Of a DNA stretch of 64,000 nt, positions 46,769 to 64,000 are shown in pieces (the stretch's first letter is position 1; every line of letters starts with the position of its first letter). The DNA lies in the NCBI GenBank assembly GCA_963750165.1, contig CAVVPN010000004.1, forward strand, positions 704,001-768,000, in the 5' to 3' direction. The DNA is from an uncultured Gemmataceae bacterium. GTDB taxonomy: Bacteria; Planctomycetota; Planctomycetia; Gemmatales; Gemmataceae. A model generated the notes under the pieces. It saw only the letters and a program-made list of their open reading frames with translations, was not told the origin of the DNA and searched no databases. Made by a program: the position numbers and the translations under genes.

Positions 46769-47242
46769 ATGTCGCAGCGATGGCGCGTTCCGGTGTTGCC
46801 GGTGTTGACGGTGCTGCTGGCGCTGACGGACCCGGCCTGGGGTTGCAGCGAACGCAGCACGGTCTGGCACTGGGACCACTGCTGGCTGAGCGTGCCGCGC
46901 TGGCTGGTGCTCGCCGCCGCCTGCGCCGGCTGGTGGTATCTGTGCTTCCACCGCCTTTTTCCCTGGCTGCTGGCCCCCGACCGGCCGCAGCCGCCCTGGC
47001 CGCGCGTCGCCTTCCGCCGCGCCGTGGCCCTGTTCTGGTTACTTTCCTGGGTGACGTTCGTCGCCCTGTTCGCCTGGCTGTCGGACGAACTGCTGTTGCT
47101 GTCGGCGCGGTCGCTGCCGAACCTGGGGCCGTGGCTGAGTCAGCAGGCGCTGAGCCTGCTGGTGCTCGCGGTCGGCCTCGGCGGTGCCGCCGTGCTCTGG
47201 CTCGCCGGCCGTCAACGCCGCCCCGGGATGCGTGAATCCTGA
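46769..47242 (+). CDS. Hypothetical Trp-rich membrane protein (signal peptide plus ~3 TM)
   Basis: GGAG RBS; hydrophobic segments; ends 15 nt before the tubulin-like gene. Confidence 0.65.
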   Translation: MSQRWRVPVLPVLTVLLALTDPAWGCSERSTVWHWDHCWLSVPRWLVLAAACAGWWYLCFHRLFPWLLAPDRPQPPWPRVAFRRAVALFWLLSWVTFVALFAWLSDELLLLSARSLPNLGPWLSQQALSLLVLAVGLGGAAVLWLAGRQRRPGMRES

Positions 47243-47257
47243 ACGAGGGAACCGGCC

Positions 47258-50200
47258 ATGACTGACACACCCCCCACCGCGCCGCCCGGCGTCCGCCATG
47301 TCGCCCCGACGGTCCTGATCGGCCTGGGCGGCACCGGCAAGGACGTGCTGTTGCGCGTCCGCCGCATGTTTTACGAGCGCCACGGCCTGCGCCCGGACGG
47401 CGGCGTCGGCTACCCGATCATCGGCTACCTGGCCCTGGACACCGACCCGGGCGCCCTGGACCGCATCGAGGGCGAGGGCGCCAGCGATTTCGTGCTGCGG
47501 GCGATCCAGTTCAAGCGCGGCGGCACCCCGGAGGCGCTCGACTGCACGGTGGCGCCGCGGCAGCTGGAAGATTATTTCCGCGGCGGCGAACAGCAGTTCC
47601 CACACCTGTTCCGCTGGCTGCCGGCGGAGCTAAAAAAGTTCGGGGCCAACGGCATCGTCGGCGGCGCCGGCCAGAACCGCCTGTTCGGCCGCCTCGCATT
47701 CTTCCACCACTTCACGCGCATCCGCGACACATTGAAAGCCCGCATCAGCCAGGTTGTCGCTGATGCCACGCTGCCCACTCGCCGCGCCGCCTGGCTGTCG
47801 GAACTGCGCACGCCGGTGGAGGTCAACCCGCAGCGCCTGGAAATCGTGCTGGTCTACTCGCTGGCCGGCGGCACGGGCGCCGGCATGTTCCTGGACATGG
47901 GCTGGCTGGTCCGCCACGTCGTCGAGCGCGAGCTGGCTCTGGCCGGCGTGCAGCCGTTCTTCACGCACTACGCGCTGCTGCCGGAGGCGTTCGTGCAAGA
48001 GGCCGCCGAGGGCCGTCGCAACGTCACGCTCAAGCCGGAGCAGCGCCGCAAGATTCAGGAGAACGCCTTCGCCTGCCTGCGCGAGATGGAGTATTTTTCC
48101 ATGGCGCCGCGGCAGGCGTTTGACCTGACCATTCCGCAGGCCGTGCCCGCCGCTGTATTCCCCCCCAAAATGGGAGGGGATACAGCGGCGGGCGGCGTCT
48201 CGGAGCCGTGGTATGGCGTGCAGTGGGAACTGGATGGCCCCGTCGTCGAAATCCACAGCTCGCCGTGGGATACGTGTTACCTGCTTGGCGGCGGCAACGA
48301 GGCGATGGGCAACCAGTGCCTGCCGCCGGCGGAGCTGTACCAGATGATCGCGGAGCGGCTGTTCCTGCAGTTCGCCGGCGGCCAGTTCGGCAGCCTGAAG
48401 GAGTCCGCCCTGAGCAACGAGGTGGACGAGACGCTGCAGGCGCTGGCCGACGAGGTGCGCGATGAGCGCGGCCAGATTTTGTATCGCCATTTCCTGAGCA
48501 AGCGCTTCAGCACCTTCGGCCTGTCGCAAATTTTCTTTGACCGCGAGCGTATGCGGCGGGCAGCGGCGCACCGGCTGGCGTGGAAGCTGGTCGCCGAGTG
48601 GTGGCTGCGGCCGGCGGACCTGGCGCCCGTGGAGTTGCAGCGGCTGGCGAAGGAGGATTTGCACGGGGGAGCCGGCGGCCGCGGCGAAGTTGTCACCGCG
48701 ACCGGCCTGGCTGGTGACAGCCCATTGTCACTGGCATACGACGCGCTGCGCGATCAGATTCTGCTGGAGGACCGCGACCAGGACCGGCATCGCACCTGGT
48801 TCCAGGTGGTTCTCGACGATGAGCAGCAGCGCCGCCGCCGTGTCGAGGAGGGCGATTTTGACACGCGCACCGAGGAAGCGATCACGCCCTTGCTGCAAGC
48901 GCACCTGCACCGCCTCAAGCGCGTCCGCGGCGCCGCGGGAGAGACGGGGCTGGCCGTCCGCAGTTTCGAGCGGCACCGCCAGCAACTCGAAGAGGAAATC
49001 GAGCGCCGCCTGCGGGCGCTGGTGCTGCACCGCCTGCAACAACTCGGCGTACGCGGCACCTTGCAGTTACTGGAGGAATACGCCAACCTGCACAAAAACG
49101 AGCTGCAAAAAGCCCAGTATTTGGCGGCGAAGAAGGCCGCGCCGCTGCCGCCCTACCCAGACCGCGTGAGCGACGCCCGCCGCCTACCGCTGGCGTACTA
49201 TGCGCGCACGGCGGTACGCCTGGAGTTGCAGCGGGCGCTGCGGCAGGTCCGGGACCACCTGCTCAAGGCGTTCCACCGCGAGGCGCTGCCGGAAATTCGC
49301 GCCTGCCTCGACCGCGTGCAGCAGCGCATCGGCCTTGACCAGCGCGAGGGTTCTTACGCCGATCTCTTGCAGCGCTTTCAATCGCTGCTGGAAGCGCAGA
49401 CCGACGCGATGTCCGGCGTGCAGCACTACCTGGCCCAGCGCTTCCGCGAGTTGCGCACGCAAGACGCCGCCCAGGAGCGCACCATCGGCCTGCTCGACCA
49501 GCTGAGCGATGCCGCCTACGACGCCCGCATCCGCCAGCTGATCGCCCCGGAGAGTCCCGGCACCGCCCTGGACATGCACGAACTCGGCCCACGTGTCGAG
49601 CGGCTGGTCTTGCAGCAACTGGCCGCGGTCGATCCGAAGTGGCAGCGCGTGCAGTCGGTCGGCGACCTGGCCCTGACGCTGCTGGCGCTGCAGCCCGCGG
49701 AACTGCCAGCGCAACCGGTCCTCGACGAACTCGCCGCCGACCTGGCCGCGGCGTGCGAGGCGCTGCTGGCGAATTTTGCCGGTGAAACCAGCGCCCTGGA
49801 GCAGTTCAACCGCGACGTGCATTTGATGCGCGTGCGGCTGGACAATTTGCGCACCTACTCGGGTTGTTTTTTGCGGCGGACGCGCGAGCCGGAGGCACAG
49901 CGGCTGGACACCGCGGCGGTACTGCGGCTGGGCGTCGCCGACTGCAAGGGCCGCGCCGCCGAGGAGTTTCGCCGTCAGGCCGAGGCCGCCGGCTCCGACC
50001 GCCAGTTGCTCGGATTGCAGTCCTTCGAGATCGATGGCGACCGCATCGTACTTTATCAGGAAAAAACCGGCCTGCCGCTGTGCTATTACTGCGGCCTGGA
50101 GACGCTGGGCGAGCTGTACGCCCGGTCGCTGCGGCAGCGCGAGACGCACCTGGACTACCACGCGCTGCGCGGCCGATTGCCGGAGGTGCGCCGGGCGCAG

Positions 50201-50917
50201 CCGGAGCGGCAGAAGCACCTGGCCCAGTGTGTCGAGCTGGCGCTGTACGGCGTCAGTACGGGCGTGTTGCGTTACGAGCAGCGTTTCGAGCAGCAGCGCT
50301 TCTGGCTGGCGGTGAAGCAGGGCTACGGCACGCCGTTGACGGTGCCGCTGGGCGGTCAGCTGGAAGAGGTGATCGCCTACCTGGCCGAGCACGCCAGCGA
50401 CCGGGCGGAGTTGCAGCGGCAGCTGGACCGCTGGTTCCAGGCCGCCGCCCAGAACGACGGTGAGGCACTGGTGCTGCTCTGGTGCGCCGTGCAGGATTTT
50501 CACGAGGACATCCGCGGGCGCGTGCAGCGGCACATCGACCAGGGCCGGCTGACGAGTTCCGAGGCCCGCCACCACCCACTGCTGGCCGTGCTGGAGCAGC
50601 GCATGCTGTCGCGCGTGCGCGAGCGGCTGCTGGGCTTGCCGGGCGGCCCAGGCTGGCTGGAGTCGAAGCTCGACCGCGGCGGTCTGGCGGCGGAGCTGGA
50701 CGGCGACGACCTCGACCAGGCCCTGCGGCTGCGGGCGGAACTGCTGCGCGACTGCTACGCGCCGCTGTCAGAGGCGGTGCCGGTGCCGGTGCTGCGTCCG
50801 GGCGCCCGGTTGGACCGGCGCGTCTTCGGCGACCTGATGGGGCCGCGCCCCGGGCCGCGGCCGGCCGCCGCGGCGCCGCTGCGGCGCTTCCAGCAGGCGG
50901 AGGATGAGTCGGTGTGA
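47258..50917 (+). CDS. Tubulin/FtsZ-like GTPase (Tubulin_2 / FtsZl1 type) with long helical C-terminus, 1219 aa
   Basis: VLIGLGGTG, LALDTD, GAGQNRLFGRLAF, SLAGGTGAG (tubulin signature), ENAFACLREMEYF, PWDTCYL. Confidence 0.88.
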   Translation: MTDTPPTAPPGVRHVAPTVLIGLGGTGKDVLLRVRRMFYERHGLRPDGGVGYPIIGYLALDTDPGALDRIEGEGASDFVLRAIQFKRGGTPEALDCTVAPRQLEDYFRGGEQQFPHLFRWLPAELKKFGANGIVGGAGQNRLFGRLAFFHHFTRIRDTLKARISQVVADATLPTRRAAWLSELRTPVEVNPQRLEIVLVYSLAGGTGAGMFLDMGWLVRHVVERELALAGVQPFFTHYALLPEAFVQEAAEGRRNVTLKPEQRRKIQENAFACLREMEYFSMAPRQAFDLTIPQAVPAAVFPPKMGGDTAAGGVSEPWYGVQWELDGPVVEIHSSPWDTCYLLGGGNEAMGNQCLPPAELYQMIAERLFLQFAGGQFGSLKESALSNEVDETLQALADEVRDERGQILYRHFLSKRFSTFGLSQIFFDRERMRRAAAHRLAWKLVAEWWLRPADLAPVELQRLAKEDLHGGAGGRGEVVTATGLAGDSPLSLAYDALRDQILLEDRDQDRHRTWFQVVLDDEQQRRRRVEEGDFDTRTEEAITPLLQAHLHRLKRVRGAAGETGLAVRSFERHRQQLEEEIERRLRALVLHRLQQLGVRGTLQLLEEYANLHKNELQKAQYLAAKKAAPLPPYPDRVSDARRLPLAYYARTAVRLELQRALRQVRDHLLKAFHREALPEIRACLDRVQQRIGLDQREGSYADLLQRFQSLLEAQTDAMSGVQHYLAQRFRELRTQDAAQERTIGLLDQLSDAAYDARIRQLIAPESPGTALDMHELGPRVERLVLQQLAAVDPKWQRVQSVGDLALTLLALQPAELPAQPVLDELAADLAAACEALLANFAGETSALEQFNRDVHLMRVRLDNLRTYSGCFLRRTREPEAQRLDTAAVLRLGVADCKGRAAEEFRRQAEAAGSDRQLLGLQSFEIDGDRIVLYQEKTGLPLCYYCGLETLGELYARSLRQRETHLDYHALRGRLPEVRRAQPERQKHLAQCVELALYGVSTGVLRYEQRFEQQRFWLAVKQGYGTPLTVPLGGQLEEVIAYLAEHASDRAELQRQLDRWFQAAAQNDGEALVLLWCAVQDFHEDIRGRVQRHIDQGRLTSSEARHHPLLAVLEQRMLSRVRERLLGLPGGPGWLESKLDRGGLAAELDGDDLDQALRLRAELLRDCYAPLSEAVPVPVLRPGARLDRRVFGDLMGPRPGPRPAAAAPLRRFQQAEDESV

Positions 50918-51045
50918 TTGTCTGGCCGGCCCAAAGTGCGAACTTGTGTATAAGTATCTATTCCGGTTACTCTACTGGGTGGTTCGGTTGGATGAGTGAA
51001 TTGCCGTCCTCGTCAGGATGGCGCGCCTTTCACAAGGAGTCTTCC

Positions 51046-52173
51046 ATGAAAGCCGTCACGCTGGTGGTGTTGAGCGGAGCCCTGTTGAGTTGGGTGCCGC
51101 AGGCGCCTGCCCAGACGGAACTGCCCCCGGCCGCGAAGAAATTGCTCAAGGAATATGAGGAGAGCATCGTCGAGCTTGACAAAAAGTACGAGGCCGAGGT
51201 CAAGAAACGCGGGGAAAAGACGACCGTGGAACTGAAGAAGGTGCAGGATCGGATGTGCAAGGAGGCCAAACTCGACGAGGCGGTGGCTGTCCGCGACCTG
51301 ATTCGCAGCATCCAGGCCGGGACCAACGAGGCCTCCGCCGCCGACCTGCCGGCCGCCGCCCGCGAAATTTACAAAGTGTATCAGGATGACACCGCCGCGA
51401 TCCTCAAGAAGGCCGAGACCGAGGTCGAGGTCCGGCGAAACCAGGCCACCGTGGGGCTGAAGCGGTTGCAGGACCTGTTGTGCAAGGAAACCAAGCTCGA
51501 CGAGGCCATCGTCATCCGTGACCTCATTCGTTCGCTTCGGGACGGGGTGACCAACACCCTGGCCGATCCGGGCTACGTGAACAACCCGGCCAACGACGTC
51601 GGCAAGGTGTTTTACTACACGGTCACCGGCGTCACCAACGGCGGCTCGATCTACGGTACCGATATTTACACCACCGGCTCGCACCTGGGCATGGCGGCGG
51701 TCCACAGCGGCGTCCTGAAAGCCGGCCAGCAAGGGGTCGTGAAAGTGACCATCTTGCCGGGCCAGAACAACTACACCGCCTCCATGCAGAACGGCGTTAA
51801 CAGTAACGGGTATGGGAATTGGGGGGTGAGCTTCAAGGTCGAACGGGTCTACGGGTTGGCGGGGAAACGTGTCAGTTCCGTCCTGGCCGACCCGGGCTAT
51901 GTGAGCAACTCGGCCAACGACATCGGCAAGGTGTTTCACTACACGGTCACCGGCGGCAACAACGGCCAGATCTGGGGCACCGGCGTCTACACCACCGGCT
52001 CGCACCTGGGCACGGCTGCGGTTCACAGTGGTGTGCTGCGAGTCGGCCAAAAGGCCATCGTGAAAGTGACCATCTTACCCGGCCAGAACAACTACATCGC
52101 CTCGCCCAGGAACGGCATCACCAGTAATGGGTATGGGAATTGGGGGGTGAGCTTCAAGGTCGAGCGGAGATAA
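51046..52173 (+). CDS. Secreted protein: two helical repeats plus two LCCL domains
   Basis: AAGGAG RBS; signal peptide; 2x (LKxxQDxxCKExKLDEAxxxRDLIRS); 2x (I[YW]GTxxYTTGSHLGxAAVHSGVL...PGQNNY...NG). Confidence 0.85.
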   Translation: MKAVTLVVLSGALLSWVPQAPAQTELPPAAKKLLKEYEESIVELDKKYEAEVKKRGEKTTVELKKVQDRMCKEAKLDEAVAVRDLIRSIQAGTNEASAADLPAAAREIYKVYQDDTAAILKKAETEVEVRRNQATVGLKRLQDLLCKETKLDEAIVIRDLIRSLRDGVTNTLADPGYVNNPANDVGKVFYYTVTGVTNGGSIYGTDIYTTGSHLGMAAVHSGVLKAGQQGVVKVTILPGQNNYTASMQNGVNSNGYGNWGVSFKVERVYGLAGKRVSSVLADPGYVSNSANDIGKVFHYTVTGGNNGQIWGTGVYTTGSHLGTAAVHSGVLRVGQKAIVKVTILPGQNNYIASPRNGITSNGYGNWGVSFKVERR

Positions 52174-52231
52174 TCCGACCTGCGAGGCGGCGGCCGGGTA
52201 CGGTCGGGCGCGATCCAGGGAGGGCTGTCCG

Positions 52232-52366
52232 ATGGCCGTCGAGAAGGAGGCGCTGCGCGACTGGCATCGCCTGTTCGGCCTGCTCTTGACCGACTATTTC
52301 AGCGGCGCGCCCTTCGTCGTCGAAGTCGCGCGCGACTTCTCGGTCCAGCAGCAACTGCTCAGCTAA
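52232..52366 (+). pseudogene. Truncated 5' fragment, probably of a PD-(D/E)XK-like gene
   Basis: GGGAGGG RBS; MAVEKEALRDWHRLFGLLLTDYFSGAPFVVEVARDFSVQQQLLS* (44 aa) resembles the start of a longer conserved family and stops abruptly. Confidence 0.5.
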
Positions 52367-52643
52367 CCTGGGCCGTGAACCAGATCGCCGACTTTCTCAG
52401 CCGGGAGGCGGTGCGCGGATTGGATAACGCGGTTTGGCTCCGCCAGGACGCGCAGGCCCGTGACCGCTTGAACGCACGGTCGGGCCTGGTGAAGCGCATC
52501 AAAGCTCTGCACCCCACCCCGGGATCCTCTTTGTAAAAGCCACGGAGCCACCATCCTTGTCCGTGTTCCCCATCCCGTCCCAGGGCCAGGGGACTTGCGG
52601 ACGCCGCGGCGGTTGGCGAGAATACCACGCGGAGGGTCAGGCC

Positions 52644-53351
52644 ATGCCGCTGCACGATTGGACAGACGAACGGGGCTGGGACAGCGTCCATCCGTTCTGG
52701 TTGGCGTACCTCGTCGAGTGGGTGCAGCCCCGCTTGCCGGAGGGGTATCGGGCGTTCCTCGGGGGCGTGCCTGCCCTGACGGTGGCGACGGGCAACGGCA
52801 AGCCCGACGTCAGCGTTCGCCACTGGGAGCCGCGTCCGCCGACCGAGGCAGTGACAACCGATACTGCCGTCCTGGAACCGGACCTGGAAGCGAGCGTCGT
52901 CGTCCGCCTTGACCCGCAACCGGCCGTCCACGTCGATTTCCACGGGCAACTCATTGCCGCCATTGAGATCGTCTCGCCGCGAAACAAGGACCACCTCGGC
53001 GCGAAGGATACGTATGCCCAGCGCTACCTGGGCTACCTCCGCCTGGGGGTGCATTTGCTGCTCGTCGATGTGCTACCGCGGCCGAAAGACTTCTCGTTCT
53101 CCGACATCATCACGGGCAGCCTGGGGCTCGAATTGCCGCCGCTGCCGGCCCCGTTTGCTGTGGCCTATCGTGTGGACGAGGTCGTCCCGGTCGGGAGCGA
53201 CATGGGCAGCCTCGTGGGCCTCTGGCGCCGTCCGCTGCAGGTCGGCCAACCCCTGCCACCGCTGCCGCTGCCGTTGAGCGTCACTCGGGCCGTCCAGATC
53301 GATCTGGAGCAGACGTACGCACGGGCGGCGAAGCGGGCTTACCTCGATTGA
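52644..53351 (+). CDS. DUF4058 family protein (PD-(D/E)XK-like, planctomycete-expanded)
   Basis: MPLHDW, PDVSV, IAAIEIVSPRNK, GVHLLLVD, LPxLPLPL...IDLEQTY. Confidence 0.85.
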   Translation: MPLHDWTDERGWDSVHPFWLAYLVEWVQPRLPEGYRAFLGGVPALTVATGNGKPDVSVRHWEPRPPTEAVTTDTAVLEPDLEASVVVRLDPQPAVHVDFHGQLIAAIEIVSPRNKDHLGAKDTYAQRYLGYLRLGVHLLLVDVLPRPKDFSFSDIITGSLGLELPPLPAPFAVAYRVDEVVPVGSDMGSLVGLWRRPLQVGQPLPPLPLPLSVTRAVQIDLEQTYARAAKRAYLD

Positions 53352-53394
53352 GCTGGGGCGTCGATCAGGAGCTCTTGTTGTTCAAAGGGCGCTG

Positions 53395-53545
53395 ATTCTC
53401 GACGTGTGAAAAAGTTGGCGTTCTTGGCGTCCTTGGCGTCCTTGATCGGTCAGGCGGCATCACAAAGTGATACGCCGTGCCAGCCAGGCGTTCATTCTCG
53501 ACGTGTGAAAAAGTTGGCGTTCTTGGCGTTCTTGGCATCCTTGAT
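53395..53545. repeat. Two direct copies (52 bp, 99-bp period) of the TCTCGACGTGTGAAAAAG(TTGGCGTTC)n repeat
   Basis: 53395-53446 and 53494-53545 are nearly identical; a third copy lies at 27301. Confidence 0.85.
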
Positions 53546-53626
53546 TAGACAGCCGTCGCCAGCCAGAGACTCCCAGCGCCAACCCGCCAGGGCAGGCAGA
53601 CGGCGACAGAAGCAGAAAGTCCCCCG

Positions 53627-56600
53627 GTGAAGGATTCCGAACCCTTGTCCGCGTTCCCCCCCACCCCCTGCCCCGTCTGCGACAACCGCCTGGCGGTCTG
53701 CTGGCGCTTCCGCGCCGACGACCGCCACTGCGGCCTGTGCGGCCAGCGCGTGCTGCGGCTGCGCGTCAGCCCCGCGACGCCGGACGGGGCGGTCTGGCTG
53801 TACCTGCACCCGACGGAGGCGCTGCGGTTGCGGCTGACGTGGGAGCGCGGCCCCGACGGCGGCCCGGCGCAAGACCTTCCGCCCCGCGCTCGACCTCGCC
53901 CGCAGTGGCGCCCACTTCACCGACGACCGCCTCGGCAGCCTGGCGTTCGCACTGGAAGAACTGCCCGCGGACAGCCCCGCCGCCGACACGGTGACGGTGC
54001 GACTGCGGCCGCTGTTCGAGGGCCTGGAAGCGCTGACGCTGCCGCCGGCCGGCGTCGCGGGCCAGCTGCACCTCGCCGCCAGCACCGGCACGGAAATCCG
54101 CCCCGCCCTGCTGCTGCCGCCGCCGCAGGAGATCGCGCTGGCCTGCACGGACCCGAGCATCGCGCGTCGCAGCGGTGTCTGGCAAATCTACCAGCGCGGC
54201 CCTGGCGTGCGCGTGCCGATGCGGCTGACGACGCCGGTGCCGCTGTGGGCCGGCGACCTGCGCATCGCCGAGGACAGCGACCCGGACGTGAGTGTCGAGG
54301 GCCTCGGCGACTTCGTGCTGCTGGAGCCACAGCGGCCGCACCCCTTCGCCCTGCGCGTCAACAGCACGCACTGGGCGTCGCAGGCGGCCCACAACTTCAA
54401 GTTCTTCGTCAACCTGGCGACGCTCGGCCCGCTGACGCTGAGCGGCGAAATCGCCCTGCTGGAGGGCAGCAAACTCCTCATCGGCGGCCCGAATCCGCGG
54501 CTGCTGGAAGTGCAACTCGGCCGCAGTTTCGCCACCAGTTTCACGCTGACCGCCAGTGCCGAGGGCGCTGCCGAGGAGGACGGCATCACGCTGGTCGATT
54601 ACACCGTGCTGCGGCAGAGCGGCATCGAGGCGGATGACGAGCCAGACTGGCTGCGCCTGCTGACGCCGGCGCGGGCGGACCTGCCGCTGACGATCCGGCC
54701 GCACGGCCCCGAGCGGCCCGCCGAGCAGTTGGTGCTGGAGGTGAGCACCGGCCGCCTCGACCGCCAGCGCTACGCCGGGGCACTGCTGCGCGGCGCGGTC
54801 GAACTGATCGATTCGCGGCGGCGGCGCTGGACCTGCGAGGTCCACGCCACGGTGACGCGGCCGCCGCGGCTGGGCAGTCCGGTGGCCATCGACTGGGGCA
54901 CGACCAATTCGTGCGCCGCCTACTGCGTCGGCGCTGTTGGCGGCGAGCCGCCGCGCTCGCTGTCGTTCGACGAGGAGCAGCAGCGCGCCCCGAGTCGTTC
55001 CCGTCGGACCTGTACTTCAGCGATCTGGACGACCCGGAAAATCCAGTCTTTTATCTGGGCCACGAGGCCGCCCGGCGGGCGCGCGAGCACCCCGAGTGCT
55101 GCCTGCGCAGCGTCAAGCGCAAGTTCCAGTTCCTCGACCAGGTGTTCGTCATGGACGAGCACCAGCGCGGCCACACCTACCCGATCACGCAGCTGGTCGA
55201 ACTGTTGCTGGAGCGGCTGGTCACGCTCGCCGAGGCCGCCCAGGGCCAGGAGTTGCACACGCTCGGCCTGACGTTTCCGACGAAGTGGTCCGCGCGCGTG
55301 CGGCACAAGTTGGAGGGCGTCACGCAGGCCCTGGCGGCCCGGCTGCAGCGGGCGCGGCAGCCGATCACGGTGCAGGTGCTGCCGCCGCAGATCGACGAGG
55401 CCAACGCCGTCGCCCTCAACCTCATCACCAGCCATCACGGTCGCGCCCTGCCCGACACCTTCCATCTCATCGCCTACGACTTCGGCGGCGGCACCATCGA
55501 CACCTCGGTGCTGGAGGTCCACCTGCCCGACGACCCGGCGGAGCTGCGGACGCGCTACATCGGCATCGGCGGCCGCCATGACTTCGGCGGCGACGACGTG
55601 ACGCGCGCCGTGCTGCTGCTGCTGCACGACCGCCTCACCGGGGCGCTGCAGCGGCGCACCGTCGTGCTGGACGACCTCACACACAAGAGCGCCTGGCTTC
55701 AGGAAATCCCGCTGGTAGCGGACGGCGAGCCGCTGCGCGAGAGCGGCCCGGGAGCGGCGCACCGCTACCAGCTGGGCCGCCGCAACTGGGACGCGCTGTG
55801 GAAGATCGCGGAACTCATCAAGATGGATTTATGCGATGCCGAGGCCGAGCCGGCCCCACCGCCCCCACCGCCGCGGCCCGCGACCGCCGCCCGGCTGACC
55901 GGCCTGGCCGACGACTTCACGCTGACCGTGGACGAGGATTCCAGCTTCGAGTCCGCCATCGCCGACGCCTTCGACCAGGAGCAGACCGGCGCGGCCGAGC
56001 CGGCGGTGTCGCCGGTGACGGATCGGCTGCGGCCGCGGCTGGCGGACCTGCTGTGCCGGGTGCAGATCCAGCCGGGGCCGGCGGAAGGCGGCGCCCCTGT
56101 GGAGGTGCTGTGGACGCTGGACGCCGTGCTCGACCCGCTGGAGGCCGAGGACCGCACCGCTTTCTTCGATGAGCTGCGCTTCACGCTGGACCACGCCTGC
56201 GAGTTCCCGCTGGAGGACCTGCACGGCACCAACCACGGCCAGCGCTACAACGTCCGCCAGCGCGTCGAGGACACCGTGCGCGAGCTGCAATGGCAGTGCG
56301 CCCAGCAGCGGGTGCAGCCGCACATCATCGTGCTGGCCGGCGGCGGCTGCCGGCTGCCGCTGGTGGCGCGGCTGATGCGGCAGTATTTCCCGAGCGACCA
56401 CGACCTGCTGTACTACCAGAAGGAGTTCGCGAAGCGGCGGGTGGCGCACGGCATGGCGAGTTACCTGGCGCTGCGACAGGTGCTGAACCTCGACAGCAGG
56501 TTAGCGCGTTCCGTGGACGTGCTGCACCACCCGCTGGGCTTGCAGAAGATGGTGCGGGCCGACGGTACCCTGCGGCTGGCGTTCGAGGCGGTGGCGCCGC

Positions 56601-56944
56601 TGGGGGCGCGCGTCAACGACCCGGGCGTGTGGCACCCGTTCACGGCGCGGGCGTCGCAGCTGCGCGATGCGGACGGTCAGTTGCGGTTGACGCTGTTCGT
56701 GCAGGACTGGCGTGGCGGCCCGCAGGAATTCGGCGTCTGCGACCTAACGCGGCCGGCGGCGACCGCGGAGCCGGGCTGGGCGGCCGGGCCGCTGCCGTTC
56801 GCGGACGGGGCGACGTACCAGGGCGGCCTGCGGCTGTGCGGCGTGCAGCGTGTCGAGGTGCGGCTGTCGCTCGGCGATGCCACTTACGGCCCCTTTGTGG
56901 CGGCGCCGACTGGGGGCGACCCGGAGGCGCTGTTGCAGAGCTAG
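53627..56944 (+). CDS. Hsp70/actin-fold ATPase with N-terminal Zn ribbon and beta-rich region (~1,100 aa); two frameshifts (~53850-53885 and 54988-54991)
   Basis: CPVC...HCGLCG; VAIDWGTTNS (phosphate-1), IDEANAVA (connect-1), YDFGGGTID (phosphate-2), FGGDDVT, VLAGGGCRLPLV (adenosine). The three ORF pieces join on single-base corrections. Confidence 0.8.
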
Positions 56945-56953
56945 CGCTTCGGG

Positions 56954-56979
56954 GTAGCGGAAGTCGCCAGACTTCCGCT
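56954..56979 (+). repeat. GTAG-type REP element
   Basis: GTAGCGGAAGTC-GCCA-GACTTCCGCT: GTAG tetranucleotide followed by a 10-bp stem, 10 nt after the Hsp70-like stop. Confidence 0.75.
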
Positions 56980-57059
56980 TCAAAAAGGTTGGTAAAGCAA
57001 GGATTCCCGCCCGGTGGTATCATGCGGGGTAGTGGGTGACGCAACCTGGGAGCATGAAC

Positions 57060-58001
57060 ATGAGTATGACGAGCGAACAGGTCAGCTCCGCGAACGGGGT
57101 GAAGGCGGCACGGACCGTCTTCGTGTCCTCCCCCGCCCGAACGGACACGTCCGTTATCCGCCGGGTGCTGGAGGGGGAAGGCATCCGCGTGCTGGAGTCG
57201 GAACTGCTGGAACCGGGCCAGCTCATCCGCGAGTCACTGATCGAAGGGATACAGAAGGCCGACGCGGTGATCGCAGTGCTCGGCGACCGGAATGCGAACT
57301 CGCCCGTCTTCTATGAGTTGGGCATCGCGGATGCGATGGCAAAGCCCGTCCTGGTCGTCTCCGCGGATGCCCTCGACCCGGCCAATGACGTCGCCCTCTA
57401 CCCCTACATCCGCGCCCGTCACGACGACGAGGAAGCCCTGCGGTTCGGCCTCGTTCACTTCCTCCGCGCACCGCACCACGGCGTGAAGCCCGAGCGGGAT
57501 TACACAGCCGTGACGAAACCGATCGGGGCGGTGGTGGACGGCCTGCTCGCGCGGGTGCGGGCGGATGAGCGCATCATGCATGACGAACTGGTCAGCATCA
57601 TCGCCGTGGCGATCCAAGAAAGCGGCGTCGCTGCGCAGGCGGCCGTGTCCAGGCGGCCCGCCGGCGAGGAGATACCAGCCGACATCGCGGTGTGGTCGGA
57701 TGAGCTGACGTCGTTCGTCGGCAACCCGCTACCCATCGAGATCCGCTCGTCGTTGGTGACGCAGAGCGACACGGAGGCGGCGGCGCAGACCATCATGCGG
57801 GCGATGATCGGGGCGCGGGCCCGGTGGGGCCTGATCCTGTACCGGAAGGCGACGCCGGACGCACTCCACGCCCTGAACAAGTTCCCCGTGTTGGCGATGT
57901 CCATCGAGGACTTCCTGGAGGGGCTGCGGACGCGGTCCTTCGCCAGGATCGTCACCGACTTGCGGAACCGGACCGTGCACGGGGTGCGGTTCGATGGCTA
58001 A
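57060..58001 (+). CDS. Nucleoside-deoxyribosyltransferase/TIR-like domain fused to a C-terminal restriction-endonuclease-like domain
   Basis: TVFVSS, IQKADAVIAVL...NSPVFYELGIADAMAKPVLVV; C-terminal ADIAV...PLPIEIR...WGLILY. Confidence 0.7.
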   Translation: MSMTSEQVSSANGVKAARTVFVSSPARTDTSVIRRVLEGEGIRVLESELLEPGQLIRESLIEGIQKADAVIAVLGDRNANSPVFYELGIADAMAKPVLVVSADALDPANDVALYPYIRARHDDEEALRFGLVHFLRAPHHGVKPERDYTAVTKPIGAVVDGLLARVRADERIMHDELVSIIAVAIQESGVAAQAAVSRRPAGEEIPADIAVWSDELTSFVGNPLPIEIRSSLVTQSDTEAAAQTIMRAMIGARARWGLILYRKATPDALHALNKFPVLAMSIEDFLEGLRTRSFARIVTDLRNRTVHGVRFDG

Positions 58002-58643
58002 GGCGTGCAGAAGGAAATAATTCGTCCGATGTACATCTGCTCCGCCGGCGAAGTCCAGGTTGGGCGGGCGCTTTCTGGCCAAGTTGGACGAATTATTTTC
58101 TTCCGTTCGCCTAAGTTCTCGCAGAAGAAGATCAAGGACCATTTCGCCAAGTCCGACGCGGCAACCACGAAGGCGGAGAAAGGGAAGCACCTTGAAGATC
58201 TGGCCGTCTACCTGTTCGAGATGGTCCCGGGCATCAGCCTGTCCGCCCGGGACAAGAAGAATGCCTACGAAACCGAAGAGATCGACGTGGCGTTCTGGAA
58301 CGAGCAGCACGCCAAGGGTTTCAAGGCGCTGAACTTCCTCATCCTGGTCGAGTGCAAGAACTGGTCGTCGCCTGTCGGTAGTATGGAGGTGAACTGGTTC
58401 CTCACAAAGATCAGGAACCGATCCCTGGACTTCGGCATCCTCCTCGCGGCCAATGGGATCACCGGGAGTGACGAAGACAAGAAGCAGGCACATGACGTGA
58501 TCTCCAAAGCCCTCACGGACGGCGTTCGCATGATCCTGCTGACCCGCGCCGAGATCGAGGCGCTGACCGACGGCGACGAGTTGGTCAAAATGGTGAAGCG
58601 GAAACTCTGCGAGTTGGTCGTGTCGGGTACCGTCTGGTCGTGA
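57994..58643 (+). CDS. Mrr-like restriction endonuclease, interrupted at codon 2-3 by a MITE
   Basis: KGKHLEDL, EEIDV, LILVECKNW, GILLAANGITG. Removing the insert restores ATG GCT AAG TTC TCG (MAKFSQKKIK). Confidence 0.8.
58002..58111. mobile_element. 110-bp MITE with ~26-bp imperfect terminal inverted repeats and TAA target duplication
   Basis: Left end ggcgtgcagaaggaaataattcgtcc; right end reverse complement ggcgaacggaagaaaataattcgtcc; flanked by TAA (57999-58001 and 58112-58114). Confidence 0.85.
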
Positions 58644-58659
58644 CGTGTCGGGGGAGAAC

Positions 58660-58917
58660 ATGAAGACCCGTATTGTGGTGATCGGCAACTCGCAGGGCAT
58701 TCGCATCCCGAAGCCGCTGCTCGAACAGACGGGCCTGTCCGGGGAGGTCGAGATCAGCGCGGAGGACGGCACCCTGGTGATCCGGCCCGTCAAAAAGCCG
58801 CGGGCCGGCTGGGCGGTGGCCCTCCAGCAGATGGCACAGCGCGGCGACGACGCCCTGCTTGACGAAGCGCCGCCGGGTTTGACTGCCTGGGACGAGGGCG
58901 AGTGGGAATGGCGATAA
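58660..58917 (+). CDS. mazE: AbrB/MazE family antitoxin
   Basis: IGNSQGIRIPKPLL...LVIRP; overlaps the toxin start. Confidence 0.9.
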   Translation: MKTRIVVIGNSQGIRIPKPLLEQTGLSGEVEISAEDGTLVIRPVKKPRAGWAVALQQMAQRGDDALLDEAPPGLTAWDEGEWEWR

Positions 58918-59231
58918 ACCGTTTCGAGGTCTACCTGATCAACCTCGACCCGACGGTCGGCAGCGAGATCAAGAAGACGCGGCCCTGCCTGGTCGTTTCG
59001 CCGGACGAGATCAACCACAACATCCGCACGGTGATCGTGGCGCCGATGACGACCAGGGGACAACCTTACCCGACGCGGGTGCCCTGCCGGTTCAAGGGGA
59101 AGGACGGCCAAGTGGTGCTCGACCAGATCCGGGCGGTGGATCGGTTGCGGTTGGTCAAGAAACTGGGGAGGATTGACGCCAGGACGGCGACGGCGGTGCT
59201 CGATGTCCTTCAGGAGATGTTCGCGCCTTGA
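58908..59231 (+). CDS. mazF: PemK/MazF family toxin
   Basis: LDPTVGSEIKKTRPCLVVS, VIVAPMTT, DQIRAVD. Confidence 0.93.
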   Translation: MAINRFEVYLINLDPTVGSEIKKTRPCLVVSPDEINHNIRTVIVAPMTTRGQPYPTRVPCRFKGKDGQVVLDQIRAVDRLRLVKKLGRIDARTATAVLDVLQEMFAP

Positions 59232-59423
59232 GCGAGAGAACTATCCCGAATCAGCCGCAAATGCCTGTCCGGTGTAGCTGGTCAGGAATTTCTTGTTTCT
59301 TCGTTGCCCGGTCCTGTACCGTGGGGAGGTTCAGATCGTGGTCGCGGCAGATTCGTGGAGCGGGAAGAAGTAGGTTGTGATGTTTGCAGCGCGGACCTCG
59401 AATTTTCATTGCAAGGAGTTACC

Positions 59424-61553
59424 ATGTCGAAATCCTCTGCGGTCGTGAGCTTCGTTCAACACCTAGCTCTCGCCCTGGCAGTCGTGCTGCCGTTGACGGC
59501 GCCCCTGGCAAACGCGGGGGAAACGAAGCTGCGAACCAAGCTTCTGGATACGTTCGAACAGGGGCACGGCAGCGTAGACCCATTTCTGCCCTCCAGCGTC
59601 GCATCGTTGGCCTTGAGTCCTGACGGAACGCTGCTGGCGACTGGGGGCGGTGATAAGACCGTCAAGTTGTGGGACGTGGCCAGGCGGCGCGTCATCGCCA
59701 CCTTGCGTGGACACGCCGCACGGGTCCGCCTGGTGGCCTTTTCCGCCGATGGCAAGACGCTCTTTTCCGCAAGTAATGTCGAAGAAAAAATCCAAAAAAA
59801 AACAAGGCTGGTCGGAATGCTCAAGCTGTGGGACGTGGCAACCGGAAAAAACTTGGCCACGTTGGAATACCCTGATGGTCACGTATCTGGGCTTGCCGGC
59901 AGCCCTGACGGTACGCATTTCGCTGTCGCAACGGGAGGCACGATCGAAATCGTGGACTTTGCCACCCGCAAGCCAATCGCTTCTTTGGGCAAGAAAAAAG
60001 ACCTAAATGCCTTTAATGGCAGTGGTGGTCCAATCGCCTTCAGCTCGGACGGTAAGACCCTGGTCGCTGGTCCCTTTGGGCTCGGGAACAACGTCAAGGT
60101 ATGGGACGTGGCCGGCCGCGAGCTGAAGGCGGATCTCCGCATCGATAACGGTGGCGCAGAGTGGACACTTTCGCTGGCCCTGAGTCCGGACGGCAAGAGC
60201 GTGGTTGCGACGCGGCCTCTTTGCATCGAGGTCTGGGATGTGGCCACCGGCAAACAAAAGCAAAAAAAGGACTTCCATGACAAGAGAGAAGAGCGCGTGA
60301 GAGGCCTTTATGTCGGCGCCGTCCTCGCCAACGACGGCAAGACTCTGGTCGGTTTCAGCCGGCCCGTAGATCGCCCACGGAAGGTCATTTTCTGGGACGT
60401 GGCCAGCCAAAAAATAACCGCCGAGTTGGATGGTGACGTCGATATCTACACGGGTGTCGCTGTCAGCAGGGATGGCAAGACGATTGCAGGCGTGAATCAT
60501 TCGAACGACGAGATCAAGGGTGAAATCGTGCAGGTGTGGGACGTGGCCCGTGCAAAACGGACGGCCCGGATGGTCGGGCGCACGTGGTACGGGGCCAGGG
60601 GTTTGTTCTTTCGCCCGGATGGCAAGGTCCTGGTGTCCACGCACGACCCCTTCTCTTTTTTCTGGGAAGTGCCCACGGGCAAGAACTTGCTCAGCTTTCC
60701 CCCCGGCCTGACCGGCGTCGCCTTCGCTTCGGACAACAAGACCTTTTTCTGCTCCGCGGGCGGCCTGAGCCGGAGCAGCCATCTTGAGCTCCACGAGTTA
60801 GCCACCGGCGAAGAACTGCGGCTGGATGAGTACATCCTGAGCCACAAAGGCATGATCCAGTGCATGGCGTCAACCCACGACGGCAAAACCCTGGCCACCG
60901 GCTCGGATGACAAGACGATCCGCATCTGGGACGTGGCCGGGCTCAAGAAGAAGAAACGCCAAGGCGATGAGGTGCTCGCCGGGTTCAAGACGGTGCAGAT
61001 TCTCACAGGCCACGCTGACGAAGTCCGTTTTGTGACCTTCAGTAAAGATGGCAAGCGGCTGGCCTCGGCGAGCACAGCGGGAGATTTCAAGCTGTGGGAC
61101 GTCGCCTCGGGCAAGGAGCTGAGCACCCTCCTTCTGGTCGAGCCGGGGAAAGAGAAAGCGGATGTTGGGGTTGGAGAGGGACGAGGCTCTCCCGTGGCGA
61201 TCAGTCGTGACTTCAAGACCGTGGCTCTGGGTACGCGGACGGGTGAGGTCAAGTTGTGGGACGTGGGCAGCGGCAAGATCCTGGCCAAGCACCAGGTCCT
61301 CAAGGGCCAGGCCGTGACGGCGCTCGCCTTGAGTCCGGACGGCAAGACGCTGGCCACTGCCGGCGGCGACAGCACGATCCAGCTGTGGGACGTGGCCAGC
61401 GGCAAGAGCCTGGCTTCGCTCAAGGCGCACACGGCCGTCGTTCACTGCCTTGTGTGGAGCCCAACGGACCCCATCCTCGCTTCGGCCGGCGCCAATGCGG
61501 ATGCCACCATCAATCTCTGGGAAATCGTCCGTCCGGAAACAGCGGACAAGTGA
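59424..61553 (+). CDS. Secreted WD40-repeat (multi-propeller) protein
   Basis: AAGGAG RBS; signal peptide; >12 SPDGKTLA...LWDVA repeats. Confidence 0.9.
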   Translation: MSKSSAVVSFVQHLALALAVVLPLTAPLANAGETKLRTKLLDTFEQGHGSVDPFLPSSVASLALSPDGTLLATGGGDKTVKLWDVARRRVIATLRGHAARVRLVAFSADGKTLFSASNVEEKIQKKTRLVGMLKLWDVATGKNLATLEYPDGHVSGLAGSPDGTHFAVATGGTIEIVDFATRKPIASLGKKKDLNAFNGSGGPIAFSSDGKTLVAGPFGLGNNVKVWDVAGRELKADLRIDNGGAEWTLSLALSPDGKSVVATRPLCIEVWDVATGKQKQKKDFHDKREERVRGLYVGAVLANDGKTLVGFSRPVDRPRKVIFWDVASQKITAELDGDVDIYTGVAVSRDGKTIAGVNHSNDEIKGEIVQVWDVARAKRTARMVGRTWYGARGLFFRPDGKVLVSTHDPFSFFWEVPTGKNLLSFPPGLTGVAFASDNKTFFCSAGGLSRSSHLELHELATGEELRLDEYILSHKGMIQCMASTHDGKTLATGSDDKTIRIWDVAGLKKKKRQGDEVLAGFKTVQILTGHADEVRFVTFSKDGKRLASASTAGDFKLWDVASGKELSTLLLVEPGKEKADVGVGEGRGSPVAISRDFKTVALGTRTGEVKLWDVGSGKILAKHQVLKGQAVTALALSPDGKTLATAGGDSTIQLWDVASGKSLASLKAHTAVVHCLVWSPTDPILASAGANADATINLWEIVRPETADK

Positions 61554-61738
61554 ATCCGTCGAGCGGAACAATCTTCGTAGTCGTGTCTGAAACAAGTCAG
61601 CATCCATGCTGATAAACGGGACGCGGACCGTTTCGGCGCGGCAACCGCAACCAGGGCCGAACCGGGAAACAAAGGGGTCAGCGTAGATTATCGAGCTTTC
61701 CCCAAAGAGTGTTGAAGTCGAGGGTGAGGAGTGCAGAT

Positions 61739-61835
61739 TCCGAACCAACCGCTGCAGCAGACCCGCCCCCCCATTGAGGTGTTGGAGATGTTCAGGTCAC
61801 TCAGGGGGGCGGGCTGCTGAGCTATGGCGTTCGGC
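61739..61835 (+). other. Integron attC recombination site
   Basis: R'' TCCGAAC ... R' GTTCGGC; L'' GCT(G)CAGCAG pairs with L' CTGCTGAGC leaving an extrahelical G; further stem CCCGCCCCCC / GGGGGGCGGG with an unpaired A; 97 bp. Confidence 0.85.
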
Positions 61836-61952
61836 TACGCTATCAACGTGTGTCGAGATGCGAGTTGCTGGGTAGGAGAAAGGGCGCATTCAACAATTAA
61901 GAATCGGAAATGGTTAAGACTTCAGAAGTGCTCACACGAGGAGAATTCCGTC

Positions 61953-62159
61953 ATGACCTTCAAGACCGTGGAAGGCGTGCTTCATCCGGACGGCACGCTG
62001 GCCTTGCCGAAGGAGGAGTTACCGGACCATGCCGTGCGCGTCATGGTGACACTCCTGGAGGCGACCGATGACGTCGCACTGGCCGAGGTGGGCGATTACC
62101 ACGAGCAGCTCAGGGATTACGAAGAGCGATTGGCTCGGGGAGAAGTCCGGTGGCAGTGA
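61953..62159 (+). CDS. Putative antitoxin
   Basis: GAGGAG RBS; 68 aa; beta-rich N-terminus (VEGVLHPDG...VRVMVT) and acidic C-terminus; overlaps the toxin start. Confidence 0.7.
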   Translation: MTFKTVEGVLHPDGTLALPKEELPDHAVRVMVTLLEATDDVALAEVGDYHEQLRDYEERLARGEVRWQ

Positions 62160-62539
62160 AGCGCGGTGAAGTCTGGCAGGCGGATCTGTCGCCCACGCGC
62201 GGCACCGAACAATCGGGGGTCCGCCCCGTGCTGGTCGTGCAAACAGACCGGGCCAACCCGCACAGCCCCCACACCATCATCATTCCGTTCACGACACGCG
62301 TGCGAGTGAAACTTCTGCCCAGTCACGTCCTCGTCCCTGCCGGGGAAGGGGGTCTGACGCAGGACTCGGTGGCGCTGGCCGAGCAAATCCGGGTGGTTGA
62401 CCACGGCCGCCTCCTCAAGCACCTCGGCGATCTGTCGGCCACGCGGGTGCAGGAAGTGGACGACGCACTCCGCGATCCTCGACCTGTAAGAAAATCAAAG
62501 AGAAAGCAAAAAGAGATCAGGTTTAGTTTACTGAAGTGA
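62150..62539 (+). CDS. PemK/MazF family toxin (true stop probably TAA 62487-62489)
   Basis: RGEVWQADLSPTRGTEQSGVRPVLVVQ, EQIRVVD. Adding 2 nt in cgcg (~62472) gives the expected ...ALRAILDL* end. Confidence 0.88.
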   Translation: MAVKRGEVWQADLSPTRGTEQSGVRPVLVVQTDRANPHSPHTIIIPFTTRVRVKLLPSHVLVPAGEGGLTQDSVALAEQIRVVDHGRLLKHLGDLSATRVQEVDDALRDPRPVRKSKRKQKEIRFSLLK

Positions 62540-62607
62540 ATTGGGGATAAAAAAGGGAGAAAAAAGGGGACGAGCACGAATGGGGACGGAAAAAGGCGAC
62601 GGGCACG

Positions 62608-62640
62608 TTTGTTTGTCTCAATTGTCCAAATGTGCCCGTC
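62608..62640. repeat. Imperfect palindrome in a purine-rich intergenic tract
   Basis: gacgggcacgtttg ... caaatgtgcccgtc, preceded by repeated aaaaggg(g)ac words. Confidence 0.5.
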
Positions 62641-62698
62641 CCCCCCTTTTCCGCCCTTCGGAAGGGTTTGAGGAGGCGGGTAGGGCTTGCTTGGGCGT

Positions 62699-62727
62699 TT
62701 GACAGCCCTTCCCCTGGCCTGGACAAT
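62699..62727 (+). promoter_or_regulatory. Possible sigma70 promoter of the TA pair
   Basis: TTGACA, 17 nt, GACAAT, ~30 nt before ATG 62757. Confidence 0.4.
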
Positions 62728-62756
62728 TCAATGTCATCGCCCGGGGAGACCATCCG

Positions 62757-62969
62757 ATGACCCCTGCACACCGCGTCGAAACCGTCCTCTCGGAAGCCGG
62801 CAAGCTGTCGCTCGACCGGCTCCCCTTCCGGGCCGGCCAGGCGGTCGAGGTGATCGTCCTGCCAGCGCCGGCCCCGGCGCCTGCTAGCCAGCCGCTCCGC
62901 GGCACACTCCTCCGCTACGACCGGCCAACCGAGCCGGCCGCCGAGGCTGACTGGGACGCCCTCCGGTGA
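62757..62969 (+). CDS. Putative antitoxin (VapB-like partner)
   Basis: GGAG RBS; LPFRAGQAVEVIVL...LRYDRPTEP...DWDAL; GTGA overlap with the PIN gene. Confidence 0.7.
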   Translation: MTPAHRVETVLSEAGKLSLDRLPFRAGQAVEVIVLPAPAPAPASQPLRGTLLRYDRPTEPAAEADWDALR

Positions 62970-63050
62970 TCATCCTGGACACTCACATTTGGGTCTGGTG
63001 GGTGGACGGCGGTGCCCAGCTGCCCGCCGACTACGCCGCGCTGCTCCAGG
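62966..63050 (+). pseudogene. Truncated VapC/PIN toxin
   Basis: MIILDTHIWVWWV...LP is a typical PIN N-terminus; similarity is lost after ~28 codons. Confidence 0.7.
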
Positions 63051-63132
63051 CGCCTGCCGAATTCAGTTCGATGGCCAGAACCCGGCTCGTTATAATGACG
63101 TGTGGTGTCCTGGAGTTCACAGGGAGAAGGCC

Positions 63133-63342
63133 ATGTCGCTTGTCGAGGTTTTGCCGGAGGTCCAGTCGCTTTCGCGGCTCGACAAACTTCGCCTGATCCA
63201 GTTCCTTGCCCGGGAACTCGAACGGGACGACGGCGACCTGATCGAACCGGGCCGCTCCTATCCCGTCTGGTCGCCTGATCGCGCTTTCGCCGCCGCCGCC
63301 GCCCTCCTGCAAGCACTGGAGGAGGACAGAGGTAAATCATGA
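63133..63342 (+). CDS. Small hypothetical protein, partner of the retropepsin gene
   Basis: GGAGAAGG RBS; MSLVEVLPEVQSLSRLDKLRLIQFLAREL...YPVWSP; ATGA overlap with the next gene. Confidence 0.7.
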   Translation: MSLVEVLPEVQSLSRLDKLRLIQFLARELERDDGDLIEPGRSYPVWSPDRAFAAAAALLQALEEDRGKS

Positions 63343-63755: not shown

Positions 63756-63869
63756 GGTTGGTTCTGCCGCCGTTGCTATCAATCCTGACCACGGGATGCT
63801 CATCTGCGTGACCAGCTGCCGAAACCGTTGCACCCCGGCAGCGCGAACTGGAAACAAAGGTTTCCTGAC

Positions 63870-64000
63870 ATGGCCGAGCCACCCCCTCCTCCATCTGCAC
63901 ACGCCGAACCCTGGGGCCGCTGGTCCGGCGATGGCCTGACGTTCACCGTGGACCGCGCCAGCGACGGGCAGTCCTTCCTCCCCGTGCCGGCGGCCGACCA
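63870..64000 (+). CDS. Partial hypothetical CDS running off the window
   Basis: ATG 63870: MAEPPPPPSAHAEPWGRWSGDGLTFTVDRASDGQSFLPVPAAD, open to the end; GC-rich codon usage. Confidence 0.5.
   Translation, partial: MAEPPPPPSAHAEPWGRWSGDGLTFTVDRASDGQSFLPVPAAD

Follow-up and report, generated by a model that had tools for sequence, protein, structure and literature searches.

Do a tubulin-like GTPase and an Hsp70-like ATPase, encoded on the same strand and separated by genes that seem foreign to both, belong to one system? This question is raised by a stretch of 64,000 nucleotides (nt) from an uncultured Gemmataceae bacterium (assembly GCA_963750165.1, contig CAVVPN010000004.1, positions 704,001 to 768,000; G000:C4:704001-768000 in our numbering), hereafter called the window. 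Its source genome, G000, comprises 9.6 Mb in 12 contigs and is 93% complete. A first-pass annotation, made from the window sequence, had pointed to a Trp-rich membrane gene directly before a protein of 1219 amino acids (aa) with tubulin motifs, and to an Hsp70-like protein of about 1,100 aa behind some 2.7 kb of apparently unrelated material. It had proposed one multi-gene system with both NTPases, continuing beyond the window. We find that the membrane, tubulin-like and Hsp70-like genes belong to one conserved gene set, which is intact in relatives and has been broken up here by insertions.

The intact arrangement is seen in a metagenome locus (L040). There, the genes for the membrane protein, the tubulin, the Hsp70, a GrpE-like protein, an Hsp70 paralogue and a 1589-aa membrane protein with vWA and Ig-like domains are contiguous, with intergenic gaps of 100, 120, 21, 45 and 73 nt, in this order. 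The open reading frame (ORF) starting at 63870, with which the system had been supposed to resume, has its orthologue 21 nt after the Hsp70 gene of L040 and is therefore not part of an unrelated operon. Another locus, L041, carries the same Hsp70 sequence and the same order from the Hsp70 gene onward and is not independent of L040. Rhomboid and other genes 5' of L040 were rejected as operon parts, since their orthologues lie elsewhere in the source genome with neighbours of their own.

The same set recurs in other genomes. Membrane, tubulin, Hsp70, GrpE-like and vWA genes share one contig in G115, G163, G176, G232 and G233 (the last two being near copies of each other) and are distributed over two contig ends in G172. 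Altogether, the tubulin-like gene directly adjoins the Hsp70-like gene in nine loci other than the window (L040, G115, G163, G176, G232, G233, G558, G366 and G341), and the membrane gene lies directly 5' of the tubulin gene in L030, L031, L040, G115, G163, G172, G176, G232 and G233. A gene for a Zn-ribbon/propeller-like protein, its fold read from sequence, precedes the operon in G115, G163, G172, G176 and G232; the degenerate paralogue was not found in these five genomes. The proposal of a single system reaching past the window is thus borne out, and the set is larger than first claimed, including as it does the GrpE-like gene, the degenerate paralogue, the vWA membrane protein and the propeller.

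Among 252 genomes of the family, with two candidates scored per genome, the Hsp70 profile matched in nine genomes from 5 of 90 genera. The tubulin profile matched in the same nine, and the vWA profile in these nine plus one short partial-domain match. Because most of the positive genomes had gone into the tubulin and vWA profiles and two candidates were scored per genome, the weight of this co-occurrence rests on the 243 genomes without a tubulin or Hsp70 match, and on gene order. Outside the family, the tubulin was detected in 4 of 400 genomes of the phylum, and the Hsp70 gene follows it directly in G558, G366 and G341.

Table 1. Genes of the system and insertions at the locus. Positions refer to the window unless a contig is named.
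Feature	Position	Strand	Basis or content
Small Trp-rich membrane protein, 157 aa, 9.6% Trp	46769..47242	+	Alignment of 7 orthologues, hydropathy
FtsZl1/Tubulin_2 GTPase, 1219 aa, ~800-aa C-terminal extension	47258..50917	+	PF13809, E 1.6e-49
Insertion 1, 2.7 kb, not part of the system	50918..53626	+	LCCL gene 51046-52173, DUF4058 gene 52644-53351, repeats 53388-53584
Zn-ribbon / Ig-like repeats / DnaK-type Hsp70 ATPase, ~1,105 aa	53627..56944	+	Three frames, breaks near 53880 and 54987
Insertion 2, 6.9 kb, not part of the system	56945..63869	+	TIR-like, Mrr-like, MazEF, MazF, WD40 and aspartyl-protease-like genes
GrpE-like partner, 392 aa (start of gene in window)	63870..64000; whole gene G000:C4:767870-769048	+	Weak profile match, co-fold
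Degenerate Hsp70 paralogue, 662 aa (outside window)	G000:C4:769074-771062		Follows GrpE-like gene

The first two genes proved to be as initially described. The membrane ORF ends 15 nt before the tubulin ORF starts. Two of its segments exceed the hydropathy threshold, and the protein probably has a signal peptide and two to three membrane helices, the signal peptide and the third helix being judged by eye. The 1219-aa ORF matches Tubulin_2 (PF13809) with 169.5 bits against a cut-off of 27. Its nucleotide-binding motifs (GLGGxG, GAGQ and AGGTGxG) are invariant across six aligned orthologues, and the ~800-aa extension is conserved in orthologues as well. Planctomycetes had been said to lack canonical FtsZ; in agreement with this, PF00091 found no match in the source genome and matched 13 of 14 control genomes.

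Two more Tubulin_2 proteins are encoded in the source genome (G000:C3:674346-678008 and C12:987468-988484). Both are distant from the window tubulin (24-25% identity, in the domain only), and the one on C3 starts with a sequence that looks kinase-like by eye. Weak Tubulin_2 matches were found in most relatives, often as tandem pairs. The tubulin protein found matches in 51 of 61 genomes searched; except in G000 and G012, these are weak, nearly all confined to the N-terminal domain, and were not counted as orthologues. Two genes lie before the tubulin gene of locus L140 (G352:C79); judged by eye, they resemble those for FRG-domain and DUF262 proteins, which are typical of defence islands.

The frame changes in the Hsp70-like gene were located by third-position GC shifts. 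The ~1,100-aa protein obtained by two indel corrections stands, and seven full-length orthologues (1126-1165 aa) are single ORFs. DnaK structures match it with E 4e-6, and the phosphate-1, K70-equivalent, E171-equivalent, GGGT and adenosine motifs align. Residues D464, G466, K539, D632, E633, D661, G663-G665 and G942 are invariant among 42 Hsp70 relatives, and Atlas HSP70 clusters score 0.96 for the protein. The prok_dnaK model (TIGR02350) gives E 9e-10 and 37.5 bits against an equivalog cut-off of 822, which is far below the level of a housekeeping DnaK. There is an extra N-terminal part of about 460 residues; the C-terminal part is short and, to judge by its length, leaves no room for a helical lid. 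Hydropathy reveals no signal or membrane segment. The Ig-like beta-sandwich repeats of the gene set have their best structural matches among ASH/MSP/PapD folds. Of the "Hsp70/actin-fold ATPase" of the first-pass annotation, the Hsp70 fold is retained; the protein is of DnaK type with its own GrpE-like partner and not a filament protein of actin/MreB type. The Hsp70 of G558 has a weak SrfB match (E 5e-4).

The partner gene is harder to place. Compared with its orthologues, the GrpE-like protein of the source genome lacks the greater part of an N-terminal stretch of ~170 residues. Over the C-terminal 67 columns of the alignment, resemblance to GrpE is weak (HHalign probability 65%, E 6e-5; 14% with a wider alignment), and an Atlas GrpE cluster score of 0.87 serves as a lead only. 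The structural model ends in helices plus strands; fold searches with it returned generic helical bundles only, GrpE not being listed, and profile comparison with solved structures yielded coiled-coil noise. When the C-terminal half was co-folded with the nucleotide-binding domain of the Hsp70 orthologue from G012, the score was 0.78, the best of three controls reaching 0.38. The mark applied to such co-folds is reached by 116 of 157 solved pairs and 2 of 215 mismatched pairs. Runs had at least 86% of contacts in common, with a partner pLDDT of at least 85. The last strands of the GrpE-like protein (371-385) and its helices touch Hsp70 residues 850-890 and 530-538, a pattern that fits what we take to be the GrpE binding mode. 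The model supports binding of the GrpE-like protein to the Hsp70 nucleotide-binding domain, although its score may reflect likeness to solved DnaK-GrpE complexes.

We read the 662-aa protein as a degenerate paralogue of the Hsp70-like gene product. It resembles the Hsp70-like profile at its N-terminus (HHalign probability 88.5%, E 2.7e-6). In its model (pLDDT 80), residues 376-658 align to the kinase MurK with a middling Z of 8.9 (root mean square deviation 4.8, 227 residues), and the Ig domains align to ASH/MSP/PapD folds with Z 10-12. The C-terminal domain is probably an actin fold (ASKHA) without catalytic motifs, preceded by an N-terminal Zn ribbon and Ig-like domains. The vWA protein has hydrophobic segments at both its N- and C-terminus. 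Its DxSxS motif is invariant in 7 of 7 proteins, which are 24-48% identical to each other; Pfam vWA models missed the L040 protein, and VWA_2 matched the operon proteins of G558 and G341.

How was the operon broken up in the source genome? From the end of the tubulin gene to the start of the Hsp70 gene there are 2,709 nt in the window and 120 nt in L040. The LCCL gene, DUF4058 gene and repeats in between, regarded as unrelated from the start, are indeed absent from L040. The second insertion occupies the site of a 21-nt gap in L040. The three system genes have a GC content of 69-72%, the two inserts 61-63%, so the GC-rich part of the shared style noted earlier holds. The Leu/Ala/Arg part is weak: a neighbouring permease contains 32% of these residues against 33% in the Hsp70 part, and amino-acid style was consequently rejected as evidence of linkage. 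The vWA gene has moved to C11:372-377 kb, where it shows two frame changes, and the Zn-ribbon propeller gene is found at C11:686304-687938. Similar events are seen elsewhere. In L042, different genes (PIN, DUF4288) are inserted at the tubulin-Hsp70 junction, and in G012 the system genes are spread over four contigs, where unrelated genes follow the tubulin gene and flank the Hsp70 gene on either side. Evidently, the system genes are kept after their linkage is lost.

It could be argued that the source-genome copy of the system is decaying and that its frameshifts are real. The two frameshifts in the Hsp70 gene, the two in the relocated vWA gene, the N-terminally shortened GrpE-like gene and the scattered operon would all agree with decay. 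We nevertheless consider it unlikely. The Hsp70 frameshifts are probably assembly errors, because the housekeeping dnaK gene (G000:C11:438182-440004) is itself frameshifted inside a G run, frame changes occur in 3 of 18 other compared genes and the second window break (54987) sits inside a C run. A second Hsp70 gene (C11:684571-686089) is split too. Moreover, uninterrupted reading frames are present for the tubulin, the membrane protein and the paralogue, and the C-terminal half of the GrpE-like protein still co-folds in the model. One public read run (word share 0.05) and no RNA data set were listed; the contigs of that run were short and mostly less than 95% alike. As the assembly carries indel errors, other broken genes in this genome need caution.

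Comparison with more distant Hsp70 relatives revealed an exchange of the GTPase. A broader Hsp70 profile matched 37 of 401 genomes of the phylum; leaving out the source genome and three tubulin carriers, 33 remain, and 14 loci from 13 of these were sampled. A dynamin-like GTPase gene lies 5' of the related Hsp70 gene in 13 of the 14 loci, tubulin in none. Pfam Dynamin_N confirmed 6 of these 13 upstream genes, and 5 of the 13 were among the sequences behind the local dynamin profile. A gene in the GrpE slot follows downstream in 10 of 14 loci (with weak Pfam GrpE matches in 2 of 5 scanned) and a vWA gene in 7 of 14, its product being half the size of the ~1,600-aa vWA/Ig protein of the tubulin version. 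The GrpE-slot proteins of the two versions do not match as profiles (best E 0.18; HHalign probability 1%) and are linked by position and C-terminal pattern only. At E 1e-40, the tubulin profile matched none of the 33 genomes. Conversely, a profile of the related dynamin-like proteins found no match in the source genome, where the upstream gene is Tubulin_2. Kinase-dynamin-Hsp70-GrpE-like-vWA operons (L114-L127) occur in many planctomycete lineages, and the Hsp70 profile matched all 11 genomes sampled from one family (f29).

In a quick tree of 28 Hsp70 rows with a small outgroup, from which a wrong-frame outgroup row and the long-branch rows G503 and G433 were omitted, 24 divergent Hsp70s form one clade (support 100) apart from 4 DnaK-like paralogues of the source genome. 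A clade with a support of 95 unites the 12 dynamin-linked rows, and the rows linked to a tubulin are spread over three lineages whose branching order is not settled. The tree indicates relatedness, not whether tubulin or dynamin came first. Tentatively, and with considerable doubt, the Zn-ribbon/Ig Hsp70, the GrpE-like protein and the membrane vWA protein might be seen as a control chassis that takes either a tubulin- or a dynamin-fold GTPase.

What could such a system do? Tubulins and dynamins are both polymerising GTPases acting on membranes. Because two unrelated polymerising GTPases occupy the same slot, their exchange points to membrane remodelling as the shared output. This is the main argument for the reading we favour, to which we give a probability of about one half: a membrane-remodelling GTPase assembly that is anchored in the envelope and gated by a chaperone. 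The vWA/Ig protein, exported and anchored in the membrane, would bind or sense something outside the inner membrane via its metal site and, together with the small membrane protein, would place the cytoplasmic FtsZl1 GTPase at the membrane. There, FtsZl1 may assemble with the help of GTP and its long helical tail and bend, seal or scaffold the membrane. The private Hsp70 and its own GrpE-like exchange factor would keep the GTPase inactive or dismantle the assembly, with the Zn-ribbon/Ig front as a putative docking part; the degenerate paralogue and the Zn-ribbon propeller may be adaptors. Either damage to the envelope or an invader might act as the trigger, and the data fit both. Support from the genomes themselves consists of gene content, order, co-inheritance, intact GTPase and ATPase motifs and the modelled Hsp70-GrpE-like contact.

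Several points weigh against this picture. In FtsZl1 proteins, T6-T7 elements are described as not identifiable, and filaments of the FtsZ type may not be formed (PMC2875224). One genome, G352 (89% complete), has the tubulin and no Hsp70 match, its tubulin gene running off the contig. The GrpE-like gene was not recognised in G341 and G366; in a Pfam scan, neither the GrpE-like nor the 662-aa ORF had any match, and the GrpE identity is weak by sequence. The co-fold may have passed owing to likeness to solved DnaK-GrpE complexes, and the Hsp70 used in it was an orthologue from another genome. Finally, most of the positive genomes contributed to the tubulin and vWA profiles, and related genomes are not independent.

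The same proteins could alternatively make up an anti-phage or anti-invader conflict system, in which infection would be sensed by the vWA protein and the threshold would depend on the Hsp70/GrpE pair; the tubulin would assemble into a physical barrier or kill the cell, in line with proposals for GTPase-centric systems. The patchy spread (9/252 family genomes, 5/90 genera) speaks for this, as do the surroundings of the genes: an ATPase that matches the NsnB/PDC-M55A/HEC-03B defence models is encoded behind the operon of G115, the operon of G163 has an IS66 transposase on one side and ArdC, RadC, TrwC and ParA genes on the other, and toxin-antitoxin and Mrr-like genes are inserted at the window locus. 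The same parts are also present in the predicted conflict systems of Kaur et al. (PMC7159879). However, no conserved nuclease, TIR, pore or protease effector was found among the operon proteins scanned, PADLOC matched 0 of 6 operon proteins, and G000 and G232 had no match to DO-GTPase2 or GAP1-N2. Persistence of the genes after break-up, on four contigs in G012 and in three places in G000, suits a settled host function. We regard defence as the main rival reading, with the odds against it; membrane remodelling and defence may also both hold.

Quite improbable, in our opinion, is a pathway dedicated to the biogenesis of a single large appendage or surface protein, where Hsp70/GrpE would fold and deliver a vWA/Ig adhesin positioned by the tubulin. 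Such a role would agree with the co-inheritance of a ~1,600-aa vWA/Ig membrane protein and with the resemblance of the paralogue's Ig domains to PapD-type chaperone and MSP folds. But the Hsp70, having no signal or membrane segment, would be in another compartment than the folded vWA protein. The invariance of its catalytic motifs contrasts with an identity of 24-48% among the vWA proteins, and the vWA protein of the dynamin version is only half as large.

Several other features of the locus deserve mention. The repeat in the first insertion consists of two tandem copies with a core of about 58 nt, and about 245 matches of at least 40 nt are scattered over 8 contigs. Repeat pairs were also detected directly after the relocated vWA gene (C11:377056 and 377168). 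In the second insertion, positions 57036-58643 hold coupled genes for a TIR-like/nucleoside-deoxyribosyltransferase-like protein and an Mrr-like nuclease, possibly a small defence pair; neither has a PADLOC match, and each is single-copy in the genome. In the remainder (58645-63755), a 709-aa WD40 gene is surrounded by a MazEF pair, another MazF gene with a small partner upstream, a PIN-like gene that is broken and a gene of aspartyl-protease-like type. At the other side of the window, positions 1-33050 of the minus strand carry very long same-strand ORFs of 3955+, 3040, 708, 651 and 1075 aa. Just past the window, also on the minus strand (L001, 7338-10176), are two long Gly/Met-rich low-complexity ORFs with near-identical, signal-peptide-like starts.

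If the chassis reading is true, the system would be a case of chaperone-driven assembly and disassembly of membrane-shaping polymers, following a logic like that of eukaryotic Hsc70 uncoating, in FtsZ-less cells. It would also provide the first mechanism for FtsZl1, namely a membrane-bound polymer recycled by a private Hsp70. The operon offers a small, defined parts list for FtsZl1: the GTPase, a private Hsp70 with its co-folding partner and two membrane anchors. The host group is known for elaborate membranes, and a cytoskeletal or immune machine in hosts without canonical FtsZ would interest both cell biology and phage defence.

Among known systems, the FtsZl1 (Tubulin_2)-vWA operons, predicted in 2010 by Makarova and Koonin and proposed to act in membrane remodelling (PMC2875224), share with ours a giant FtsZ-like protein that is extended far at its C-terminus; both also include membrane proteins and a vWA protein whose DxSxS motif is intact. 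According to Supplement 5 of that paper, the FtsZl1-vWA cluster of Magnetospirillum contains a DnaK-annotated gene (amb2961), and FtsZl1 of Chloroflexus has a GrpE-annotated neighbour. In what its main text says of these operons, no Hsp70/GrpE module is mentioned, and the planctomycete members treated there are kinase fusions. A scan of the L040 operon revealed no kinase, P-loop GTPase or OmpA genes. Our literature search found no functional study of FtsZl1 proteins.

The GAP1-N2 DO-GTPase systems of Kaur et al. 2020 (PMC7159879) resemble our operon in having a tubulin with a helical tail, a membrane vWA protein with beta-rich domains, an HSP70-GrpE pair, a further HSP70 of reduced length and zinc ribbons. 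Where those systems have an FNIII-repeat protein, our gene set has Ig-like repeats closest in structure to ASH/MSP/PapD folds. In the sections of that paper devoted to them, the tubulin and HSP70 themes are non-overlapping and belong to firmicutes and actinobacteria, although its overview mentions systems combining GTPases with tubulin and HSP70. Here, in contrast, tubulin and HSP70 share one planctomycete operon without DO-GTPase or GAP1. No DO-GTPase ORF is present in the L040 operon or among 4 flanking genes scanned. PF19993 had 0 matches in G000, G115 and G232, its matches in G012 and G176 being on other contigs (a control was matched); PF20013 (GAP1) had none in G000 and G232, and those in G012, G115 and G176 are on contigs other than that of the operon. 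Since the operon contains neither DO-GTPase nor GAP1, the genes that define those systems, it is not a published GTPase-centric conflict system.

Another related arrangement is the cyanobacterial dynamin-like "chaperone clade" of Jilly et al. 2018, in which a membrane-remodelling GTPase has a DnaK-domain gene directly downstream (PMC5827413). It has a dynamin where our operon has a tubulin-fold GTPase, and no GrpE or vWA partner is mentioned in what that paper says of the clade. With DnaK-GrpE (PF00012, PF01025), our pair has in common the Hsp70 motifs and linker, a putative GrpE-like C-terminal beta domain and the modelled contact. It differs in the ~460 extra N-terminal residues and short C-terminus of the Hsp70 and in that no J-domain gene was found when the L040 operon was scanned; separate canonical dnaK and grpE genes are present in the source genome. 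Our literature searches found no account of a tubulin-Hsp70-GrpE-vWA operon or of a tubulin/dynamin exchange; the gene-neighbourhood data of Kaur et al. may list the combination. The parts and looser combinations of them are thus already in print; what is new here is the exchange of tubulin for dynamin and the Hsp70-GrpE co-fold.

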